A stretch of DNA of 13,693 nucleotides, from contig CATMOE010000078.1 in assembly GCA_950072105.1 (NCBI GenBank), forward strand, positions 1 through 13,693. Direction: 5' to 3'. Below the pieces are notes generated by a model that saw only the letters and a program-made list of their open reading frames with translations, did no database searches and was not told the DNA's origin. A program made the translations under genes and the position numbers. The DNA is from an uncultured Dehalococcoidia bacterium (GTDB lineage Bacteria > Chloroflexota > Dehalococcoidia > Lucifugimonadales > UBA3495). Every line of letters starts with the position of its first letter. The first letter of the stretch is position 1. Shown here in pieces: positions 2,398 to 11,942 of this stretch.

Positions 2398-4110
2398 TCA
2401 GCTTCGCCCAAGTTCGAGCAACAAGCCGTGGGTCAGGGCCGACGGCTCGCTTACGGTGAGCACAGGCCGTCCTCCGGTCTGTATCTCGATCTTGGCCGAC
2501 GGCATGTCCTGATCTTCCCGGAACCGTAATACCAGGTCTCCCGAGTTCAGTTGGGTGAGAGCGGCCTGGGCCATCTCTATCACCGATGGGTCTCCCGGCG
2601 TCCCGACCACCGTGGCGATGACAGGTAAGGACAGTAACCGGGCCAAGGAATGTCCGAACCCGGCGGCAAAAGCTCCGTAGTTTCGATGGGCGTTGGGGAA
2701 GCTTTTCAATGCCCACACCGCTTGTTCCCGGTGTGCCTCTTTGCCCGTCAAGTCAGCCAACTTGACGAAGAAAGCCGCCAGCCGGGCATTCTGAGCCAGT
2801 ACCTTCATGGGCCGGCTGAGACTTGCCGGGCCGGATATGCTGATGTCGCGGAACCCCCCTTCATGGTCCCGGTGCCGCTGGGCGATGCTCTCCGCCAACG
2901 ATTCGGCTCGTCGCAAGTAGGTGTCTTCATGGAGCGTGGAGTAGGCGTGCAGCAAAGCTAAGCCGGTTTCCGTGGCATCCCCCAACAGTCCTGGCACTAG
3001 GGCCTTGCCGTCCCAATAATGGTGCATGGCGCCGTCGGGGCCACGCAGTGTCTCCCACAGCAGGTCCAGCACTTCCTTCGCCCGTTCCCGGCACCCTTCC
3101 AATCCCAAGATCCACCAGGCATCGAGATAGGCCGTCACCGCCCGGGCGTTGGCGTCGCAGTAGAGATAATCATCGATGACTGACAGCATGGCGGACGATG
3201 ATGAGTCACGATCCTCTCGAACGTAATCCTGACACCCTTGAAAAAGGCCGGCTTGCCCCCTGGACAGGGTGGTATCCAGGTATTCAACCAGCCCTAAAGC
3301 CGTTTCCCGGTGAGACGAATCTTGGGTCAGCAGAAAGGCGCGTAGGTGGTTGCTAAGGAGGGCCGCTTGGTCGTCTAGCAGCTTTTCCGGATGGGGCTCG
3401 CTCCAATCCGCCTTGGAGGAATATCGGTAAAATCCACCGCATTCGGCATCGAAGGTCTTGCTGCCGCGCATCTTGTCTAAGGTGAATCTAACGTGATCCA
3501 GGTGAGAAGACTCGCCGCTGGTCTCGTAAAGGTACATGAGGAAATCATTAGCTTCGGGATGCAAGAATTTGAACTGGGCGCCGTAGCCGCCGTTGACCGA
3601 ATCGGCCAGGCCTTCCACCATGCCGGCTATTTCGGCTACGATGGCCGGACTCAAGGGCGCCCGATCGTTGTCTGCGGCGCTATCGTCATCGGCACTTGCC
3701 TGACCCTCTGTGGGATCGACTATGGCTTCGCCCTGTTGGTGCAGCGTTACCACTTTGACCAGCAGGTTGATAAAAGGCTCGGGTTCCATGAAGTTGACGC
3801 TGAATAGGTGGCTGCCGTCGGGGGACATAAAGATGACAGTAGGCCAGCCGCCCTGGTTATACCGCAGGTCCACGTCGGGGCGTTGAGACTCCTCTACGCG
3901 GATGGGAATGAAGAAGGCGTTCAGCAAGGAGATGGTGTCGTCTTCCGACAGGGAGGTCTCGTCCATCCGCTGGCAGAACCCGCACCAGAAGGCGGCGAGA
4001 AAGACCATCACCGGTTTATTCTGGTCCTGGGCCTCTTGGAACGCCTCCGGTCCCCACTCCCGCCAATCAATCAGGTGCGCCTGGTTGGGGCGAACAGAGA
4101 ACCGGAACAT
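2398..4110 (-). CDS. DUF255/YyaL (SPATA20-like) thioredoxin-domain protein with C-terminal (alpha/alpha)6 domain
   Basis: IDWREWGPEAFQEAQDQNKPV, WCGFC (CxxC), RPDVDLRYNQGGWPTVIFMSPDG, GGFYRYS..DWSEPHPEKLLDDQA. RBS GGGGAGG; starts 23 nt after the grdB-like stop. Confidence 0.88.
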   Translation of the reverse strand: MFRFSVRPNQAHLIDWREWGPEAFQEAQDQNKPVMVFLAAFWCGFCQRMDETSLSEDDTISLLNAFFIPIRVEESQRPDVDLRYNQGGWPTVIFMSPDGSHLFSVNFMEPEPFINLLVKVVTLHQQGEAIVDPTEGQASADDDSAADNDRAPLSPAIVAEIAGMVEGLADSVNGGYGAQFKFLHPEANDFLMYLYETSGESSHLDHVRFTLDKMRGSKTFDAECGGFYRYSSKADWSEPHPEKLLDDQAALLSNHLRAFLLTQDSSHRETALGLVEYLDTTLSRGQAGLFQGCQDYVREDRDSSSSAMLSVIDDYLYCDANARAVTAYLDAWWILGLEGCRERAKEVLDLLWETLRGPDGAMHHYWDGKALVPGLLGDATETGLALLHAYSTLHEDTYLRRAESLAESIAQRHRDHEGGFRDISISGPASLSRPMKVLAQNARLAAFFVKLADLTGKEAHREQAVWALKSFPNAHRNYGAFAAGFGHSLARLLSLPVIATVVGTPGDPSVIEMAQAALTQLNSGDLVLRFREDQDMPSAKIEIQTGGRPVLTVSEPSALTHGLLLELGRS

Positions 4111-4133: not shown

Positions 4134-5420
4134 TTACCGGCCCGGGGCCTCGCTCTTCAGGGCTTCAAGGGCTTGGAGGACGGTTTTCCTCCGGAGTTCC
4201 TTTTCCTCATCGGGGGGGAGATCAGCGGCGCCCAAAGGGTGGACGATGCCGGTGCCCTGGACGATGCGGTTGGAGCCAACCATCTTGGCGATGGGAACCA
4301 CCGAGGTTACCTGGCAAACCGGGATACCCGCTTTTTCCAACTCGGTCGCGATCGCAGCGCCGCTGCGAGTGCTGGTCCCTCAAGCCGAGGTGAGGATCAC
4401 CGCGTCAACCCCCGAATCCTTCAACTTCTGCGCGATCTCCTGTCCCAAACGGCGGCTGTTGGCTAGTGGATTGGCCAAACCGGAGGTGGATATGAACTCG
4501 TCGTGGAGCTTGCCGACGACGCCCTCACTCTCCAATTCCCGCATTACGTCGACCGGAACCATCCGGTCCGGGTCTTGGCGCACGTAGCGTGTGTCGTAGC
4601 CCCGATGGGCCACCTCGTAGTCCTCCCCCTTCAAGTCATCGTCCTTGGATATGTCGTAGCTTCCCCAGGTGGTTGCCGCGGTATGGGCGATGTTGTCCGG
4701 GTTGCCCTGAGGCACCACCCCTCCGTCGGTGACGATGGCCACTCGGGCCTTAGAGAGGTCAATGACCGGAGGCGGCGCCGGTACTGATGGGAATGTGGTT
4801 ACTGTCAGTTCGGACTGGAAAGCGGCGCCCTGGGTCTTGGCGTACAGCATCTCAACCATGCGTTCGGCCGCCGACTTTTCCACGAAGCTGTCCCGTAGGA
4901 TGCCTCGGGGAATGTAGCCGTCTTCGGTGGGCGATCCCATCTCCTGACCCGCCGACAACTTGGCGGCGATAGCAGCCATCTTGATCAACGTGGCTTCCAT
5001 CGCCGACACGCTTTCGCCCGAATCCACGATGTATAGTTTTTGGCGGTAAAGGTCCACTCCGGGGTTTTCCAGCGCCATTCCCGTGACTGCCGGAATGCCG
5101 ATCTCAGCGCCTACGTCCACGCACAAAGCAGCAGCCGCCGCACCGTAACGGCCTGCCTCGAAGCACGGTCCGGCTACAAACAACTCGGCTTTGCAGGCGG
5201 CAACTTCCTTCAGAACGAATTCCTTCAGTACATCGGGGTTTTCGGCGGCGAAGTTGTCCCCGCAGATCACCGTTTTCACGACCTGCGAGTCCTGGCCGAG
5301 CACCCGCTCCAGCAAGCGTCCCGGCCCCACCGCGCCGTCCCGCACCTCGGGCGGAGCATTCGCCACCTCTTCACCGCCCATTCCGCCGAAAAATTGGTTC
5401 AAGTAATGTACTACCCGCAT
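4134..5420 (-). CDS. grdB: Glycine/sarcosine/betaine reductase selenoprotein B family protein; 428 aa with Sec347 (UGA at 4380-4382), joining ORFs 4380..5420 and 4134..4340
   Basis: N-terminus MRVVHYLNQFFGGMGGEE, then TVICGDNF, AGPCFEAGRYG, GMALENPG, IAIVTDGGVVPQGNPD, HRGYD...DPDRMVPVDVMRELE. The frame continues through TGA as AVILTSA-U-GTSTRSGAAIATELEKAGIPV, the family Sec position. Paralog identity (grdB/grdF/grdH) is not resolved. Confidence 0.93.
4352..4368 (-). promoter_or_regulatory. Putative bacterial SECIS hairpin
   Basis: Minus strand: TGA, 11 nt, then TCGCAGC-GGC-GCTGCGA, a perfect 7-bp stem with a G-containing apical loop. The spacing is typical of bacterial SECIS elements. Confidence 0.7.
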
Positions 5421-5469: not shown

Positions 5470-5580
5470 ACGATCCCCTCTCTAACTCTCCCCCGTAAAG
5501 GGGCGAGGAGAAGTCCCTTCCCCCCTTGCGGGGGACGGTTAGAGCCTGCCCTGAGCCTAGCCGAAGGGATGAGGGGTCGT
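5470..5580. repeat. REP-like inverted pair of palindromic units with a nested second repeat
   Basis: Left unit CCCCTCTCTAACTCTCCCCCGTAAAGGGGCGAGGA (5475-5509). The right unit, reverse-complemented, reads CCCCTCAT[insert]TCTAACCGTCCCCCGCAAGGGGGGAAGGGA (5514-5576). The insert GCCTGCCCTGAGCCTAGCCGAAGGG is at ~5544-5568. Confidence 0.75.
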
Positions 5581-5583
5581 CCT

Positions 5584-6846
5584 TTAATAAACAAAACACC
5601 GCAGCTTGGAGATCCCTTGTTGGCTGGTTACGCCGCAGATTCCTCCGGCGGGTATCTCCTGGGCCACTTCAAGAGCGGCGGTCATGGCCGGGTTTCCCGC
5701 TACCACCTTCTCCACCGCCGGGAGGTCCCAATTCGTGTCGCCGCCGCCAACGTAGACGATGGCATCCACCTCCGGATAGTTAAACAGGAGCGCGGACTCG
5801 GCCTGCCGGTCCCGGGACATGTCCGATACTTGGACGGTGGTGAAGATCCCGGATTGTTCGCAAAGGCGGGCCGTCAACGCCATGTCGGCGTGGGGAGCTC
5901 CGCCGCCGTATTTTGTGAGAACAACACCATCGGCGGCCAGGTTCCACTTGGCCATCTCCGAGGCGAGCATGCAGTTGCGCTCCCTATCTGAATTGTCGGA
6001 AGCGGCCATGGTGGCGATTGTCCCCACTAGAGTAATCTTCCCCTCCCGGTGCCATCGGTAAAGCTCGCTGATGACTGGGTGATTCTGGTAGAAATAGGTC
6101 TCCACGCCCATGTTCTGGTAGCCGGACACCACTCCCCCGTCCAGCCATTCGTTGGGGTGTAGCATCACCGGCACCATTCCGGCGGTGTTGGCGCCGTAGA
6201 GTATCTGCTCATCCACCTCGGCCACTCGCTGCCTGGAGTGTATCTGGCCGATGTAGGCCACGCGGGGCAATCCGTCTCTTCCGGCCTGAGTTGGTCCATC
6301 GGACTGGAAGACTTCCGTTGCGTTGGGCATTTGGCCTAAGGCCGTTTTGGCCAGAAATACCGACGTCTTTACCGACGCCAGCCGTAGCGCGTTCTGGGCG
6401 GTGTGCCGTTCCAGGTTTGAATCAGTGTGAGGCACGATGGCCAAATGGTGCAGCACCGAGTAGGGAGACTCTTCGCTGGCCGGCCCGCTCATCTCCACGA
6501 TTTTGTTGTTGCCCAATGGTGCCGCTTCATCGACCAAGGTCACCGCCGCGCCTCTCAAGACGTGGGTGGTGCCTTGGCCTGCCGTGGCGATGGGACCGAG
6601 GATGCCCGGATAATCCGAGCCTGCTCCCGGCTCTTTGACCCTAGGCTCGATAATGTCGAATACAACGCCGATGCGGCAGGCCTCGCCGGGATTGGCGATG
6701 TCCATGTCCACGCTCTGCAGGCGTGGGTCTTCCAGCAAGTGATTCGTCAGGCTCTCCCGGTCGACGACCAAAGTAGAACCATCTAGGTAGGTCGAGTCAC
6801 CGAATCGCAAGTCGGTAATTTGATGTATCGCCAGAGTCAGTTCCAA
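5584..6846 (-). CDS. Glycine/sarcosine/betaine reductase component B alpha/beta subunit family (GrdE/GrdG/GrdI-like), lacking the pyruvoyl-forming Cys
   Basis: DIANPGEACRI..VFDIIEPRVK, GQGTTHVLRGAAV, LPRVAYI, PVMLHPNEWLDGGVVSG, TYFYQNHPVISELY, ADGVVLTKYGGGAPHADM, CGVTSQQG all follow the GrdE pattern. TTG start with a GAGG RBS; directly upstream of the grdB-like gene. Confidence 0.88.
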   Translation of the reverse strand: MELTLAIHQITDLRFGDSTYLDGSTLVVDRESLTNHLLEDPRLQSVDMDIANPGEACRIGVVFDIIEPRVKEPGAGSDYPGILGPIATAGQGTTHVLRGAAVTLVDEAAPLGNNKIVEMSGPASEESPYSVLHHLAIVPHTDSNLERHTAQNALRLASVKTSVFLAKTALGQMPNATEVFQSDGPTQAGRDGLPRVAYIGQIHSRQRVAEVDEQILYGANTAGMVPVMLHPNEWLDGGVVSGYQNMGVETYFYQNHPVISELYRWHREGKITLVGTIATMAASDNSDRERNCMLASEMAKWNLAADGVVLTKYGGGAPHADMALTARLCEQSGIFTTVQVSDMSRDRQAESALLFNYPEVDAIVYVGGGDTNWDLPAVEKVVAGNPAMTAALEVAQEIPAGGICGVTSQQGISKLRCFVY

Positions 6847-6862: not shown

Positions 6863-7480
6863 TTACCAGCCCAGATTTTCTTTGATTAGGATAACACGAA
6901 CCCTATCGTCGGCCACTTCATTTTCGAAAATAGTAAGCTTGCCCATGGGCCTGGCGTTGCGGCCCTGCGCCACCAGCCATTCGTCGTGTTTGTCTACCGT
7001 GTATCCTCGAACGCGGTCGATGGCATCGGTCAGAGTGGCGCATATCTTTTGGGTGCCGGCAACCAGGATCACGTATTTGGCCCCGAAGACGAACGCGCCC
7101 AGTTGGCTGCCCGACCCGCTGGCCACCACAATCTCGCCCGTTTCGGCGATGGCCTGAACGCTGCCGATGATGTATTCCGAAACCGTGGCCAACCGCCGCA
7201 GGTCACGTTGTTTCGCGGGGTCGGTTTCCTCGGCGATTTCGTCGTGCAAGTTGCGATAGCGAGGGTTATTGTGCAGGTAGTCCGAGTAGCCGATGGAATC
7301 CAGGGTTTCGGAGGTACTGTTGAATACCTCCGCTCCATCAGGGACCATGTCCTTGAGAAGTTGCAGGGCTTGCTCGCTGGTCTCGGCTACCACCGCCGGC
7401 ATATTCCGGGCGGCCAAAGCCTCCACCGTTCGCTGGATGACCGCGTCATCAACTATCCGTGTGGAATCGCTGATTGACAT
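6863..7480 (-). CDS. LUD-domain (DUF1121/YkgG/LutC-like) protein
   Basis: TVEALAARNM, SETLDSIG, YIIGSVQAIAETGEIVVASGSGSQLGAFVFGAKYVILVAGTQKI, and C-terminal VRVILIKENLGW. Confidence 0.8.
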   Translation of the reverse strand: MSISDSTRIVDDAVIQRTVEALAARNMPAVVAETSEQALQLLKDMVPDGAEVFNSTSETLDSIGYSDYLHNNPRYRNLHDEIAEETDPAKQRDLRRLATVSEYIIGSVQAIAETGEIVVASGSGSQLGAFVFGAKYVILVAGTQKICATLTDAIDRVRGYTVDKHDEWLVAQGRNARPMGKLTIFENEVADDRVRVILIKENLGW

Positions 7481-7485
7481 GGCGG

Positions 7486-8394
7486 CTAAACCCGGTTAGG
7501 CCGGCCCAGCATCCGCTCCGCCATCTCCTTGTCGATGCCCCTAGGCCACTCCCGGTGTGACGGGTCGCTGATGCGAATGATCAAGGACGGGCCTAGTTCT
7601 TTGATCTCCATGCGGATAAGGTCTCCGTCCTGAACCGCTCCGATCTGCTGGTGGTTCACGCCGGTGGCGATGACGTCACCGGGTTCCAGGGTGGTGATCT
7701 TGGAGAACTCGGAGATCAGCTCGGGAATCTTGTGGGCCATGTCGCTGGTGGGGAAGTCGTGGCGGGCCTCGCCGTTGTTCCACAGGCGGATCTGAAGATC
7801 CTGGGGGTCGGGAATCTCGTCGGCGGTAACCAGCGCCGGCCCCATGGGCGCGAAAGTGTCCCAGCATTTGCCCAAGAAGAAGCTGTTCCCCACCGCTCCC
7901 GGCAGCCCCCTAGCCGACATGTCCAGGAAATTGCAGTAACCGAATATGTGGGACATCGCGTCTTCCTGGCTGACTTTGGTGGCGGTCTTGCCGATGACCA
8001 GGGCCAACTCGGGTTCGTGATGGAAAACCGTCGCCGGGGCTGGAGGCAGTTCGCAGGTGTCGCCGGTGCCTATCACAGCGTTGGGGGCTTTGAGGAAAGC
8101 GTCCAGGATCGCCGGTTCCCTCATGCCGAACTCCAGGTAGTTGACGGCGGCGCAGATCAGCTTGCCTGGACGGGGAACGGGGGCGCGTAGCCGCACACTC
8201 TCCAAGGACAGGCCGTCTTTGTTGTGGATCGCCGATTCAATCTTCGACTTTAATTGCTCCCATCCGATGATCAGCTCTTCCATCATGTCCTGGGGGCGGC
8301 GAAACTCACGGCCCTCGAATGAATCCGTTGCGTCCACGATCTGGCCGTCGCGAATGACCCCCAAGCGAAATTCGTTAAAAAACGCTAATTTCAT
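7486..8394 (-). CDS. Fumarylacetoacetate hydrolase family protein
   Basis: LRAPVPRPGKLICAAVNY, FLKAPNAVIG, HHEPELALVIGK, YCNFLDMSAR, GKCWDTFAPMGP, TLEPGDVIATG. AGGAGG at 8403-8408 favours the ATG at 8394 (MKLAFF) over 8487. Confidence 0.92.
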   Translation of the reverse strand: MKLAFFNEFRLGVIRDGQIVDATDSFEGREFRRPQDMMEELIIGWEQLKSKIESAIHNKDGLSLESVRLRAPVPRPGKLICAAVNYLEFGMREPAILDAFLKAPNAVIGTGDTCELPPAPATVFHHEPELALVIGKTATKVSQEDAMSHIFGYCNFLDMSARGLPGAVGNSFFLGKCWDTFAPMGPALVTADEIPDPQDLQIRLWNNGEARHDFPTSDMAHKIPELISEFSKITTLEPGDVIATGVNHQQIGAVQDGDLIRMEIKELGPSLIIRISDPSHREWPRGIDKEMAERMLGRPNRV

Positions 8395-8477
8395 TGCCAT
8401 CGCCTCCTGTTGAAAGGGAAATGTAGGCTCAAATTTAGTTAAAAATAAGGATTTTTGCAATTCCAGCGGACGCCGGG

Positions 8478-8506
8478 AGTGTAGCACACGGGCTATCCGC
8501 CATCAA
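8478..8506 (-). promoter_or_regulatory. Putative sigma70 promoter of the FAH-LUD-grd-DUF255 operon
   Basis: Minus strand: TTGATG (8506-8501), 17 bp, TACACT (8483-8478), with extended -10 TGn. Confidence 0.55.
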
Positions 8507-8719: not shown

Positions 8720-9742
8720 ATGGACTTCGGCATTTTCACAATGTTCAGTGCCCGGGAGACCTCGACGCAACACGAGATATTCCACGAGTGGTTCGATGTC
8801 GTCCGGATCGCCGAGGAATCGGGCATTGATACCTTCTGGCTGGGTGAGTCCCACTTCAGGCCCCACCGGGCGATGATGGCCTCGCCTCTCATCGGAGCCA
8901 GCGCGGTGGCCTCCCGCACCCAGCGCATGCGGGTAGGCTTGGCGGTGCAAGTACTGCCCTTGGCAAACCCGCTAAGGATAGCTGAGGAGGCTGCCATCGT
9001 TGACCACATAAGCGAAGGCCGCTTGATCTTCGGCGTGGGGCGTAGTTCTTTTATAGAGTCCTACAACGGATATAACGTGGACTATAGCGAGAGCAGGGCG
9101 CGGTTCATGGAATCGTTGGAGGTGATCCAAAGGGCGTGGCGCAATGAGAACTTCTCTTACCACGGAGAGTTTTACGACTTCGAGAACGTGAACTTGGTGC
9201 CCAAACCCTACCAGACGCCCCACCCGCCCATTCGAGTGGCCGTGGAAAGCAGGGAAACCTTTTCCCTGGTGGGTGACATGGGATTTCCCATCTTTATCCG
9301 GCACCAAATGGATGTCTTAGAACTTCAAGACCTCTTAGGGGAATACGAGGAAAAGCGTCACAAAGCAGGGTTTGACGGTCCCAACGACGTGATCCTGCAG
9401 CTTGCCTGCTATGTGGCTGACACTGCGGAGGAGGCTCTCCATGAACCGGAAGCCAGCACCATGCGCCAGAGGCGGCTGGTCGCCGAGTCCCTGAACGCCG
9501 CCGCCGACGAGGAAGCCTACGAGCGGCTAAAGAAAATATCCGAAACGACTTACGAAGACGTGCTCACCAGAGTCATTTACGGCACACCTGAAATGGTGGT
9601 TGAGCGCCTGCACCAGTACCAAGAAGACCTGGGCATCACCGGCGTGTCGCTGGACGTAAATCCCGGCGGCCAAGTCCCCTACGACCGCGTCGTCAACTCC
9701 ATGCGCCTACTCACCGAAAAGGTCATGCCCCAGTTTAAGTAG
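8720..9742 (+). CDS. Luciferase-like (LLM class) flavin-dependent oxidoreductase
   Basis: MDFGIF, AEESGIDTFWLGESHF, RTQRMRVGLAVQVLPLANPLRIAEEAAIVDHISEGRLIFGVGR, PKPYQTPHPPIRVA, GTPEMVVERL, SMRLLTEKVMPQF. RBS GAGGA. Confidence 0.93.
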   Translation: MDFGIFTMFSARETSTQHEIFHEWFDVVRIAEESGIDTFWLGESHFRPHRAMMASPLIGASAVASRTQRMRVGLAVQVLPLANPLRIAEEAAIVDHISEGRLIFGVGRSSFIESYNGYNVDYSESRARFMESLEVIQRAWRNENFSYHGEFYDFENVNLVPKPYQTPHPPIRVAVESRETFSLVGDMGFPIFIRHQMDVLELQDLLGEYEEKRHKAGFDGPNDVILQLACYVADTAEEALHEPEASTMRQRRLVAESLNAAADEEAYERLKKISETTYEDVLTRVIYGTPEMVVERLHQYQEDLGITGVSLDVNPGGQVPYDRVVNSMRLLTEKVMPQFK

Positions 9743-9879: not shown

Positions 9880-11942
9880 TTATTCGTTGTTCCCGCTATT
9901 GTCCTGCGCCGCCCCTTTCTGAAACGAAAACGTGATGGCCTTCGTTGTCTTCGCGTCCGGCGACATTAGCTGATGCACGTCTGGTTGGCCGTCTTTGAAT
10001 CGTATGATGCCCAGATTGTTCTCTTTTCTAATCAGTTCCATTGCTCCGACAGGGGAAATGCCCCACACCGTATCGGTCCAGATGGAGCGGTCGTGGGCAT
10101 TTCAAGAATCAATCTCGAGCCAAATCAAGAGAGCGAATATGGGACGGAGTAAACGATGAAAGAACCCGACGTCGGAGCCTTCCCTCCACCCGAAGCGATG
10201 TTCGGTTCTTTCGGCGATGCGGCTGAATCTCTCCAATATGTCTAGGCCACCCCCTTACCGTGGAGGGGGCTGCTGGTAGCCTGCCAGACTTTCAAGGTTT
10301 TACCGTTGCTGACGAATTCCGCACGGTTGGTGAACGAGTAATGCACGTCGCCTGACAAGAATAGACACCAACTAGGGTCTATCCGTGACGTGAGAACATG
10401 CATCAAAGCCCCGAACCCTTCCCGGTTTCCGATCCACGATTCAAAATCGACTTCTGCCGGGCGCTTGATTGAGAACCGGACCAGGAATTTCTGCATAAAC
10501 TCCACAGGCTCGAAGCCGTACACGGGAGATGGGGAGACGATAATTAGGGGTAAATCCTTCTCCCTTGAGTACTCGGGTTGCTGCTTGAGGTCGGCCCACG
10601 CGGTTTGCAGCCAACCCAGGCCGTACCGGTCCATCAGCCGGGCGGGACCCCGATTGGAATCGAACTCCCTCTGCGTCCGGGTGTCCAGCACCATGGTGGG
10701 AGGATTAAAGGGCACAGTGTAGCCCCAACCGCGCTTGTTCCATAGGCGGCGGTCAAAGCGTTCGGCGGCGTTTCCATCTTGTAACTTGCCGCAAACGTGG
10801 TTTGAGATTGCGTCGATCAGCCGGGAAGAAATCCCTTCCGGATAGTTTCCCCAGCCTTGGAAAGCCCAATAAGCGGCCAGAGCGTTGGATACGACTCTGC
10901 GCCCGCAGGCGCTATCGCTTACGTGCCGGTACCAACGGCGGTTGAGATTCCAGTCGTCGGTCACATCGTGGTCGTCGAAAATCATGTATGTGGGAATATT
11001 TGCGAGGGCGCGGCGTACCTTCGGCAATGTTCCAGCGAATTTCTTTGTGTAAAGGAATTGCTCGTCGTAGATCGATTTGTGCTTGGCCGTCTCTTCATCG
11101 TCCATGTGAGGAAATAGGTCTTGGATGTCTCCTCAGTCTGTCAGGCCTACCTCGGTTCCGCCCCACACAGCAAGGTACATAGCGGCATATTCGCCAAAAG
11201 TCAGCAGGTGATTTTCCGACTCTCCGGAAGTGAATCCCGAGTTTGCGGCCTCCAAAGCTTTCCCACGTTGAGACAGCGGAATATCCGCTAGGTTTTCTAG
11301 TTCCGGAATCGATTCTTGCCAGCCGGTAATCTCCTGGCCCAATTTCATCAATGCCGGCATCAGGGGGAGACCCACGTCATCGGCGTAGATCTGGTCGCCT
11401 GTAAGGAACAGAATGGCGGGCCGTTTATCCAATGTTTGAGGCGCCTTGGCGATGATTCGATCGGCAACGGCCAGGCGGTCCTCGGTAGGACCTCCGTCTT
11501 CCATATAACCCGCGTGAGGCTTACGGCAAGAACCGTGAGCCAGCGTGCGAAGTTCGCTTGGAAGGAAGAAACTGGGTAACTCCAGGCCATCGTAGGCGAT
11601 GCTGTATTTGCCTTCTAATAGTTTCAATCCGGCGAGGTTGTCTGTCTCTACCGTGACGTCGTAACCGAGCAAAGTGTCACGGGGGAATTGGCCGTTCTTC
11701 GGTGGTTTGACCTCAAGCAGATGAACGAAGAGGTGATCCCCAAGACGAACAGGAGTCTCGCGCCCGCCGCGATCAGGATCGCTAGTCCCGATCGGGTCTT
11801 GGCTTTGGGAACCGCTGCCTCTTGGATCAGCGAAGACCTCTCCCCTCACGCCGATCTTTTCGCTGGTAGCGAGCCAGATACATACCCGTCCCGGATCCGC
11901 CCGTCTCAGAATCGGTCCGGCTAACACTAGTGGAAGCGGCAT
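9880..11942 (-). pseudogene. PhoD-like (alkaline phosphatase D family) metallophosphatase with two in-frame TGA codons and one frameshift
   Basis: Motifs LPLVLAGPILRR, HGSCRKPH, FLTGDQIYADDV, PTYMIFDDHDVTDDWN, LSGDVHYSF, QATSSP, ENNLGIIRF are spread over three ORFs. TGA at 11133-11135 is in frame with ORF 10242..11105; a 1-nt shift occurs at the G5 run (10250-10254); TGA at 10102-10104 is in frame with ORF 9880..10068. Confidence 0.8.

Follow-up and report, generated by a model that had tools for sequence, protein, structure and literature searches.

Glycine-reductase-type enzymes are taught as oxygen-sensitive systems of anaerobes that need a UxxCxxC motif and end in acetyl phosphate, and in clostridia a cysteine of GrdD carries the acetyl group. 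In the account given in PMC10838667, the selenocysteine (Sec) of protein B attacks the substrate carbon and the resulting carboxymethyl-selenoether is then handed to proteins A and C; the CxxC of protein B is described there and in PMC6778437 as guarding Sec against oxidation. The fluoroacetate reductase FarB is described as lacking this CxxC, and its partner FarE as lacking the pyruvoyl cysteines (PMC10838667). According to PMC13188914, the CxxU motif of GrdA is redox-active and GrdA is a likely interaction partner of the UxxCxxC of GrdB, for which some role in transfer is left possible by that source. The selenenylsulfide is reported to arise when the acetyl thioester is formed on protein C (PMC10298544), and a title cited in PMC12674515 names Se-carboxymethyl-selenoprotein A as the cleavage target of protein C.

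The gene described here lies in a stretch of 13,693 nucleotides from an uncultured Dehalococcoidia bacterium (the window). It encodes a grdB-family predicted selenoprotein B (4134..5420, minus strand) of 428 aa with one in-frame TGA read through, and it scored 441.7 bits against PF07355 (cut-off 22) and 480 bits against TIGR01918 (cut-off 65.45). The hallmarks of the selenoprotein B family were found: the in-frame UGA stands at STU-G and is followed by a SECIS element, the genome carries selA, selB and tRNA-Sec, a gene for a GrdE-family partner adjoins, and GrdA and GrdC are encoded elsewhere in the genome.

The UxxSxxS motif and its SECIS stem

The active-site motif reads U347-G-T-S350-T-R-S353 (4362..4382, minus strand) and is encoded by TGA (4382-4380), GGG, ACC, AGC (4373-4371), ACT, CGC and AGC (4364-4362), after which follow GGC and GCT (4358-4356), the latter for A355. 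The codons bear out the sequence-only reading that both cysteines of the motif are replaced by serines encoded by AGC, each one base from TGC. That UxxCxxC is the usual state held for 28 of 29 new Bacillota loci, taken from a sample of the 30 best-scoring matches that is hence biased towards the query, and for the annotated GrdF (L161) and GrdH (L162). Three GrdB genes, including that of the window, are present in the genome; a paralogue on another contig (61% identical) also reads UGTSTRS, and the third copy (39% identical) reads UGTCNRC. The motif was read from DNA loci because protein databases end the serine-branch genes at UGA: of the 120 nearest database proteins, 119 were 346-347 aa long or ended at the T-S-T/A position of a TGA-truncated call. 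The database labels of these genes as glycine or betaine reductase are probably wrong. Elsewhere in the window, a PhoD-like phosphatase frame of 566 codons (10242-11942, minus strand) contains a single in-frame TGA at 11133-11135, which could be either a nonsense change or recoding.

A SECIS-type stem-loop with a 7 bp stem and a 3-nt loop (4352..4368, minus strand) begins 11 nt past the UGA, a spacing that agrees with bacterial SECIS elements. In this stem the codon for S353 contributes its A, which is paired with the final U of the A355 codon GCT (4364:4356), just as had been proposed from the sequence. Support for the hairpin comes from covariation, since its folding was no more stable than that of shuffled sequences (z = 0.00; 93 of 200 shuffles folded equally well). 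Across 122 non-redundant genes the pair was Watson-Crick in 119 and U-G in three. In the 47-member branch to which the window gene belongs, AGC was combined with GCT in 40 genes and TGC with GCA in the remaining seven, so that the codons for Ser/Cys353 and Ala355 change together, while GCT accounted for only 268 of 2199 other alanine codons in the branch. The motif change is therefore tied to SECIS pairing, and the hairpin covariation that the sequence-only reading called for was found.

The same reading held that the serines are a fixed change rather than a sequencing error, and here the paralogue, the 40 UxxSxxS genes, the SECIS covariation, TCC codons and RNA-derived contigs agree. Values of dN/dS were 0.07-0.19 in all seven gene pairs, and the branch gene is, by these substitution rates, under purifying selection. 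Twenty public runs, drawn from 15 studies and including six marine metatranscriptomes, contained at least half of the words of the gene; the 14 DNA runs were set aside as possibly stemming from the source sample. In contigs from RNA libraries of two separate studies (four RNA runs compared), both serine codons were covered and showed no other letter, all differences from the window gene falling outside them; these are assembled contigs rather than raw reads, and DNA carry-over is possible. A sequencing error was rejected on the UGTSTRS motif of the paralogue and the agreement of the RNA contigs from both studies, and a pseudogene is effectively refuted by purifying selection and the compensated SECIS. 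In the intergenic region between grdE and grdB (window ~5475-5575), all four RNA runs showed a sharp peak in depth and numerous contigs with loose ends, which suggests a multi-copy repeat element; an internal repeat within this region was not found.

Distribution of the serine branch and its companion genes

From 143 intact frames, 122 non-redundant ones were kept after removal of duplicates; frameshifted copies (L043, L044 and L048, of which L044 and L048 read UGTSTRS) were left out. The sampling was built around the query, and the following counts do not give family-wide frequencies: UxxCxxC 57, UxxSxxS 40, UxxGxxS 11, UxxSxxC 10, UxxCxxS 2 and UxxGxxC 2. When tabulated by clade, all 40 UxxSxxS genes fell inside one branch of 47 members (SH 99), which was recovered in an IQ-TREE run of 38 rows, 18 of them from the branch, with UFBoot/SH-aLRT of 100/99. 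The branch comprises the window's own family together with Binatia and other deltaproteobacterial records. Its seven other members form one nested genus (L013-L015, L017-L020) with UxxSxxC, which by its position in the tree has returned to Cys353, with a compensating GCA in the SECIS stem. Since the nearest outgroups of the branch are UxxSxxC genes from Bacillota, Cys350 appears to have been lost before Cys353, the root of the tree being assumed. Ser350 occurred in all 47 members and was encoded by AGC in 44 and by TCC in three, so it seems to be held as an amino acid. The genomes are 67-100% complete and mutually related.

A second cysteine-free lineage, UxxGxxS, is separate from the serine branch and makes up 11 of the 122 rows (L030, L031, L055, L067, L075, L165-L168, L170, L173). 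Its members come from the window's family, from Entotheonella and from Formimonas DCMF, whose copy (L075) has an uninterrupted frame and may be that labelled a likely pseudogene in PMC6778437.

A loss of grdA along with UxxSxxS, as considered from the sequence alone, was not borne out. In the window's own genome grdA lies on another contig behind grdC and has an intact CFVU motif, and in the 28 family genomes that carry the serine branch GrdA was found in 26, GrdC in 26, GrdD in none, acetate kinase in none and a DUF255 orthologue in 13. The two genomes without GrdA and GrdC are 85% and 67% complete. Among 150 family genomes GrdA and GrdC each occurred in 29, the same 29 for both. Neither in the own genome (92% complete) nor among the 150 family genomes was GrdD found with the profile model, which returned only two fragment matches there (47 and 66 residues, E 4e-4 and 9e-4) and detected GrdD in two of five control genomes, both Bacillota. 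In 121 genomes of the class Binatia, GrdC was present in 11 and GrdD in none. Acetate kinase was encoded in one of the 150 family genomes, which has no GrdB. The lack of grdD belongs to the host system rather than to the serines, since grdD is also missing from genomes that hold only UxxCxxC or UxxGxxS copies (G009, G015, G020, G152, G154). The single GrdA and GrdC of the own genome must also serve its UxxCxxC paralogue. The own genome further encodes COX1. To judge by its gene content and by the named Chloroflexota close to it in the tree, the host is probably a SAR202-type Dehalococcoidia.

Divergent grdC-grdA and grdE-grdB-DUF255 units adjoin in six genomes. GrdC matched FabH models weakly, and its F-C motif was kept in all rows compared. 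A two-gene grdC-grdA unit without grdD was seen at C28:1989-4004 of genome G000 (L060). GrdC of the family mostly reads FCCGP (usually FCAGP or FCAAP), and GrdA mostly THCFVU (usually TECFVU).

The grdE-family partner (5584..6846, minus strand; 420 aa, PF09338 275.9 bits) has no GNCVxxCD and reads GYQNMGVETY instead. The pyruvoyl-forming cysteines of GNCVxxCD were absent from it and from all 34 branch partners with an extractable site, the pattern not having extracted 13 further partners. Four proteins of 774-798 aa (P0137, P0146, P0152, P0223), whose C-terminal half matches GrdB 1-345, are probably GrdE-GrdB fusions, judging by these alignments.

The genes around grdE-grdB differ between sub-branches. 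Upstream of grdE the window carries LUD-domain, FAA-hydrolase and luciferase-like genes (6863-8487, minus strand; 8720-9742, plus strand), which are probably outside the module because their order is kept only in the closest relative compared (L032). In a sister sub-branch (L061:7032-7601, in the own genome on C45, and sister loci) a thiol-dioxygenase-like cupin stands directly upstream of grdE, with fumarase-like and 2Fe-2S genes on the other side. The best solved relative of this cupin is mercaptosuccinate dioxygenase (E 1.8e-4). The cupin gives a weak hint at a thioether substrate, and no more than that because it is common in family genomes without Grd (found in 99 of 150, most of them without Grd).

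Mechanism and rival explanations

The reading that we prefer, at a probability of roughly 0.55, is that the window GrdB acts as protein B of a distinct branch, which would work with a pyruvoyl-free partner on a non-glycine X-CH2-COO- substrate and feed GrdA and GrdC. U347 would serve as the nucleophile that displaces the leaving group from such a substrate together with the pyruvoyl-free GrdE, and the carboxymethyl group would pass from GrdB to GrdA; a cysteine pair on protein B is not predicted to be necessary. The leaving group would need no Schiff base and could be of the onium, the thioether or the halide kind, like those of the betaine and fluoroacetate reductases. Ser350 and Ser353 may hydrogen-bond the selenolate or the substrate. 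A deep-alignment model of GrdB (pLDDT 92.3, pTM 0.84) consists of two flavodoxin-like alpha/beta domains and places U347 between strand 340-344 and helix 348-363, whose first turns contain both serines; a single-sequence model (pLDDT 37.8) was discarded. Solved relatives of GrdB were not found by sequence search, and fold searches returned generic flavodoxin-like matches alone (best TM-score 0.23; best Z 11.1 across 124 residues, mostly of the N-domain), which do not make the fold new.

Without GrdD, the FabH-like GrdC could use its conserved cysteine to carry the acetyl thioester, which it would then transfer to CoA. The system would in that case support the use of carbon by a cell that respires oxygen, rather than ATP synthesis from acetyl phosphate. 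That the relay would probably end in acetyl-CoA we infer because GrdD and acetate kinase are absent and GrdC is weakly FabH-like with a conserved cysteine, in the light of the chemistry generally associated with FabH. Oxidized GrdA might be re-reduced by thioredoxin or by a DUF255 CxxC domain. Several points count against this preferred reading: it gives no reason why an organism that respires oxygen should lose a protective motif, the neighbouring genes, which vary by sub-branch, point to no substrate, GrdC would have to act alone, and the lack of grdD is not peculiar to the serine motif.

It had been argued from the sequence that Sec without a local selenenylsulfide must be resolved in trans, or else that the chemistry differs. 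The first conclusion is not forced. The CxxC of protein B is described as protective, the CxxU of GrdA as redox-active and FarB as working without CxxC (PMC10838667, PMC6778437, PMC13188914); a selenenylsulfide on protein B is thus not required, and resolution in trans therefore does not follow. The second is probably right, but on other grounds, namely the missing pyruvoyl site in GrdE and the missing GrdD.

A wider version of the preferred reading is tentative, and we would sooner doubt it than rely on it. In SAR202-type Dehalococcoidia and in Binatia, aerobes of ocean and soil, the genes would form an oxygen-tolerant, GrdD-free Stickland selenium reductase, in which a serine-tuned protein B breaks a bond (C-S, C-N+ or C-halogen) in some dissolved organic compound, the C2 unit is passed on by GrdA, GrdC alone makes acetyl-CoA and DUF255 (YyaL/SPATA20-type) is the dedicated dithiol reductant. 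If true, it would provide first functions for GrdC and for a DUF255 protein.

Of the competing explanations, the one that survives best, unlikely though we take it to be, is a different chemistry or direction, for example detoxification by one-step dealkylation or dehalogenation, or a synthesis that takes the carboxymethyl group from an acetyl thioester. Such a reaction would fit an aerobic host that has neither GrdD nor acetate kinase, some 15 other substitutions specific to the branch (D232, W252 and N317, close to the substrate loops, among them) and the failure of every substrate-specific model. However, GrdA and GrdC occur together in the same genomes and are often adjacent, as the canonical relay predicts, and nothing points directly to another reaction.

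Rather improbable too is resolution in trans by the DUF255 protein, in which U347, oxidized in turnover or by oxygen, would be reduced by the CxxC domain of its neighbour. This protein (2398..4110, minus strand; 570 aa, PF03190) has a thioredoxin-like N-domain with WCGFC at 3973-3984. Its gene directly follows grdB as a conserved neighbour in the window's sub-branch and in 10 of 15 Binatia and deltaproteobacterial loci (L033-L043, L045-L048) is no more than ~4 kb away from grdE-grdB, WCxxC was kept in all 24 rows compared, and all 13 family genomes with an orthologue carry the serine branch; FarC, moreover, is proposed in PMC10838667 to reactivate the oxidized Sec of FarB. Yet 15 of the 28 branch genomes yielded no orthologue (cut-off E 1e-90; more distant paralogues exist), on which ground DUF255 was rejected as an obligatory partner. 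Besides, DUF255 also adjoins grdC-grdA in two Binatia loci (L185, L187), and serine-branch clusters lack the trxA and trxB of canonical clusters, which makes GrdA an equally fitting target. The link between UxxSxxS and DUF255 suspected from the sequence thus stands for the sub-branch and many Binatia copies, where DUF255 is a true neighbour, but not as a rule across the branch genomes. A stand-in for the thioredoxin missing from the clusters is a plausible role for DUF255, and the motif does not need it.

Still more doubtful is a resolving thiol moved in cis, with Cys86 of the N-domain reaching U347 in place of the lost CxxC. Cys86 (AGPCF; 5163..5165, minus strand) is diagnostic of the branch: it was found in all 47 members and in 119 of the 120 nearest database proteins, against one of 75 other GrdB, the remaining 74 having Ala or Ser. 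Its loop is bordered by invariant G84, P85, G90, R91 and Y92, and in a comparison of the two GrdB domains it was matched to the U347 loop in what would be an internal repeat, a weak match (hhalign E 0.019, probability 2.4%; BLASTP E 7.2). Against this, Cys86 was gained along with the loss of the otherwise invariant Cys96, present in all 75 GrdB outside the branch and in one of the 47 members (Ala96 in the window; 5133..5135, minus strand). In a coupling analysis (Meff 200, confounded by phylogeny) the pair 86-96 ranked 14th strongest, and this analysis gave no link from position 86 to the Sec loop and no credible inter-domain contact for Cys86. Furthermore, none of the 11 UxxGxxS proteins, which also lack both motif cysteines, has gained Cys86. 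The Cys86/Cys96 exchange and its coupling would fit a local packing swap.

The least probable explanation by far, a sequencing error or a decaying pseudogene, could appeal to serine codons one base off TGC and to the label given to a GrdB without UxxCxxC in PMC6778437, but it fails against 40 separate genes across several phyla, the compensatory SECIS change, the TCC codons, dN/dS below 0.2 and the RNA contigs.

Comparison with described selenoprotein B reductases

Judged by sequence scores and motifs, the window GrdB belongs to the selenoprotein B family, yet does not pass the tests specific to the glycine, sarcosine, betaine, proline and fluoroacetate reductases. A description of the serine branch was not found in the openly licensed literature, to which the search was confined. 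With GrdB/GrdE (TIGR01917) and GrdF/GrdG (NF040794/NF040793) the locus shares the families, the STU-G-T core, the SECIS position, the grdE-grdB order, the CxxU of GrdA and GrdC. It differs from both in UxxSxxS, the Cys86/Ala96 swap, the lack of a pyruvoyl site and of GrdD, and a cluster without trxAB. Window GrdB reached 445.8 bits against the glycine GrdB model TIGR01917 (cut-off 602.2) and lacks its UxxCxxC; it reached 486.5 bits against the sarcosine GrdF model NF040794 (cut-off 800) and does not match the GrdF motif, and GrdE reached 217.5 against the GrdG model NF040793 (cut-off 780). None of the 47 branch members matched the GrdB or GrdF motifs as given in PMC9751293, whose GrdB motif was matched by 30 of the 57 UxxCxxC rows. 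A two-subunit protein C including GrdD, as in the glycine, sarcosine and betaine systems, was not found in the own genome or in the family and Binatia-class genomes searched.

The betaine reductase GrdH/GrdI (NF040795) is similar in that its partner is not a pyruvoyl proprotein (as described in PMC10838667; L162). GrdH, in contrast, keeps UxxCxxC (L162), lies on another branch of the tree and has a BCCT transporter and grdD beside it, and the window protein scored 429.7 against its model (cut-off 775). The D-proline reductase PrdB (TIGR04483) has a homologous Sec domain (residues 200-421), but window GrdB scored 100.6 against a cut-off of 300 bits, carries an additional N-terminal domain and is accompanied by GrdA and GrdC.

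The closest functional analogue appears to be FarB/FarE of Cloacibacillus porcorum MFA1 (NF053623), which we set beside window GrdB/GrdE by their description in PMC10838667, without a claim of orthology. In that description protein B lacks CxxC and its partner the two pyruvoyl-forming cysteines, and a direct attack by Sec followed by hand-over to proteins A and C is proposed. The window GrdE, however, scored 173.5 bits against the FarE cut-off of 675, none of 89 GrdE rows being closer than E 3.8e-61; orthology to FarE was rejected on this equivalog cut-off. In place of the farA transporter and farC radical SAM genes, the neighbours in the window are DUF255, LUD and FAA hydrolase.

A published genome paper used loss of the motif to label a GrdB copy a pseudogene (PMC6778437). 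The natural variants UxxSxxS, reverted UxxSxxC and independent UxxGxxS offer a handle on the purpose of CxxC, on GrdC without GrdD and on the role of DUF255, and the branch may reveal a new breakdown route for marine dissolved organic matter. Since FarB is already without CxxC, the motif change on its own is modest; a branch that extends over several phyla, occurs in marine RNA libraries and does without the cysteines, the pyruvoyl site and GrdD departs from the taught picture of these reductases.
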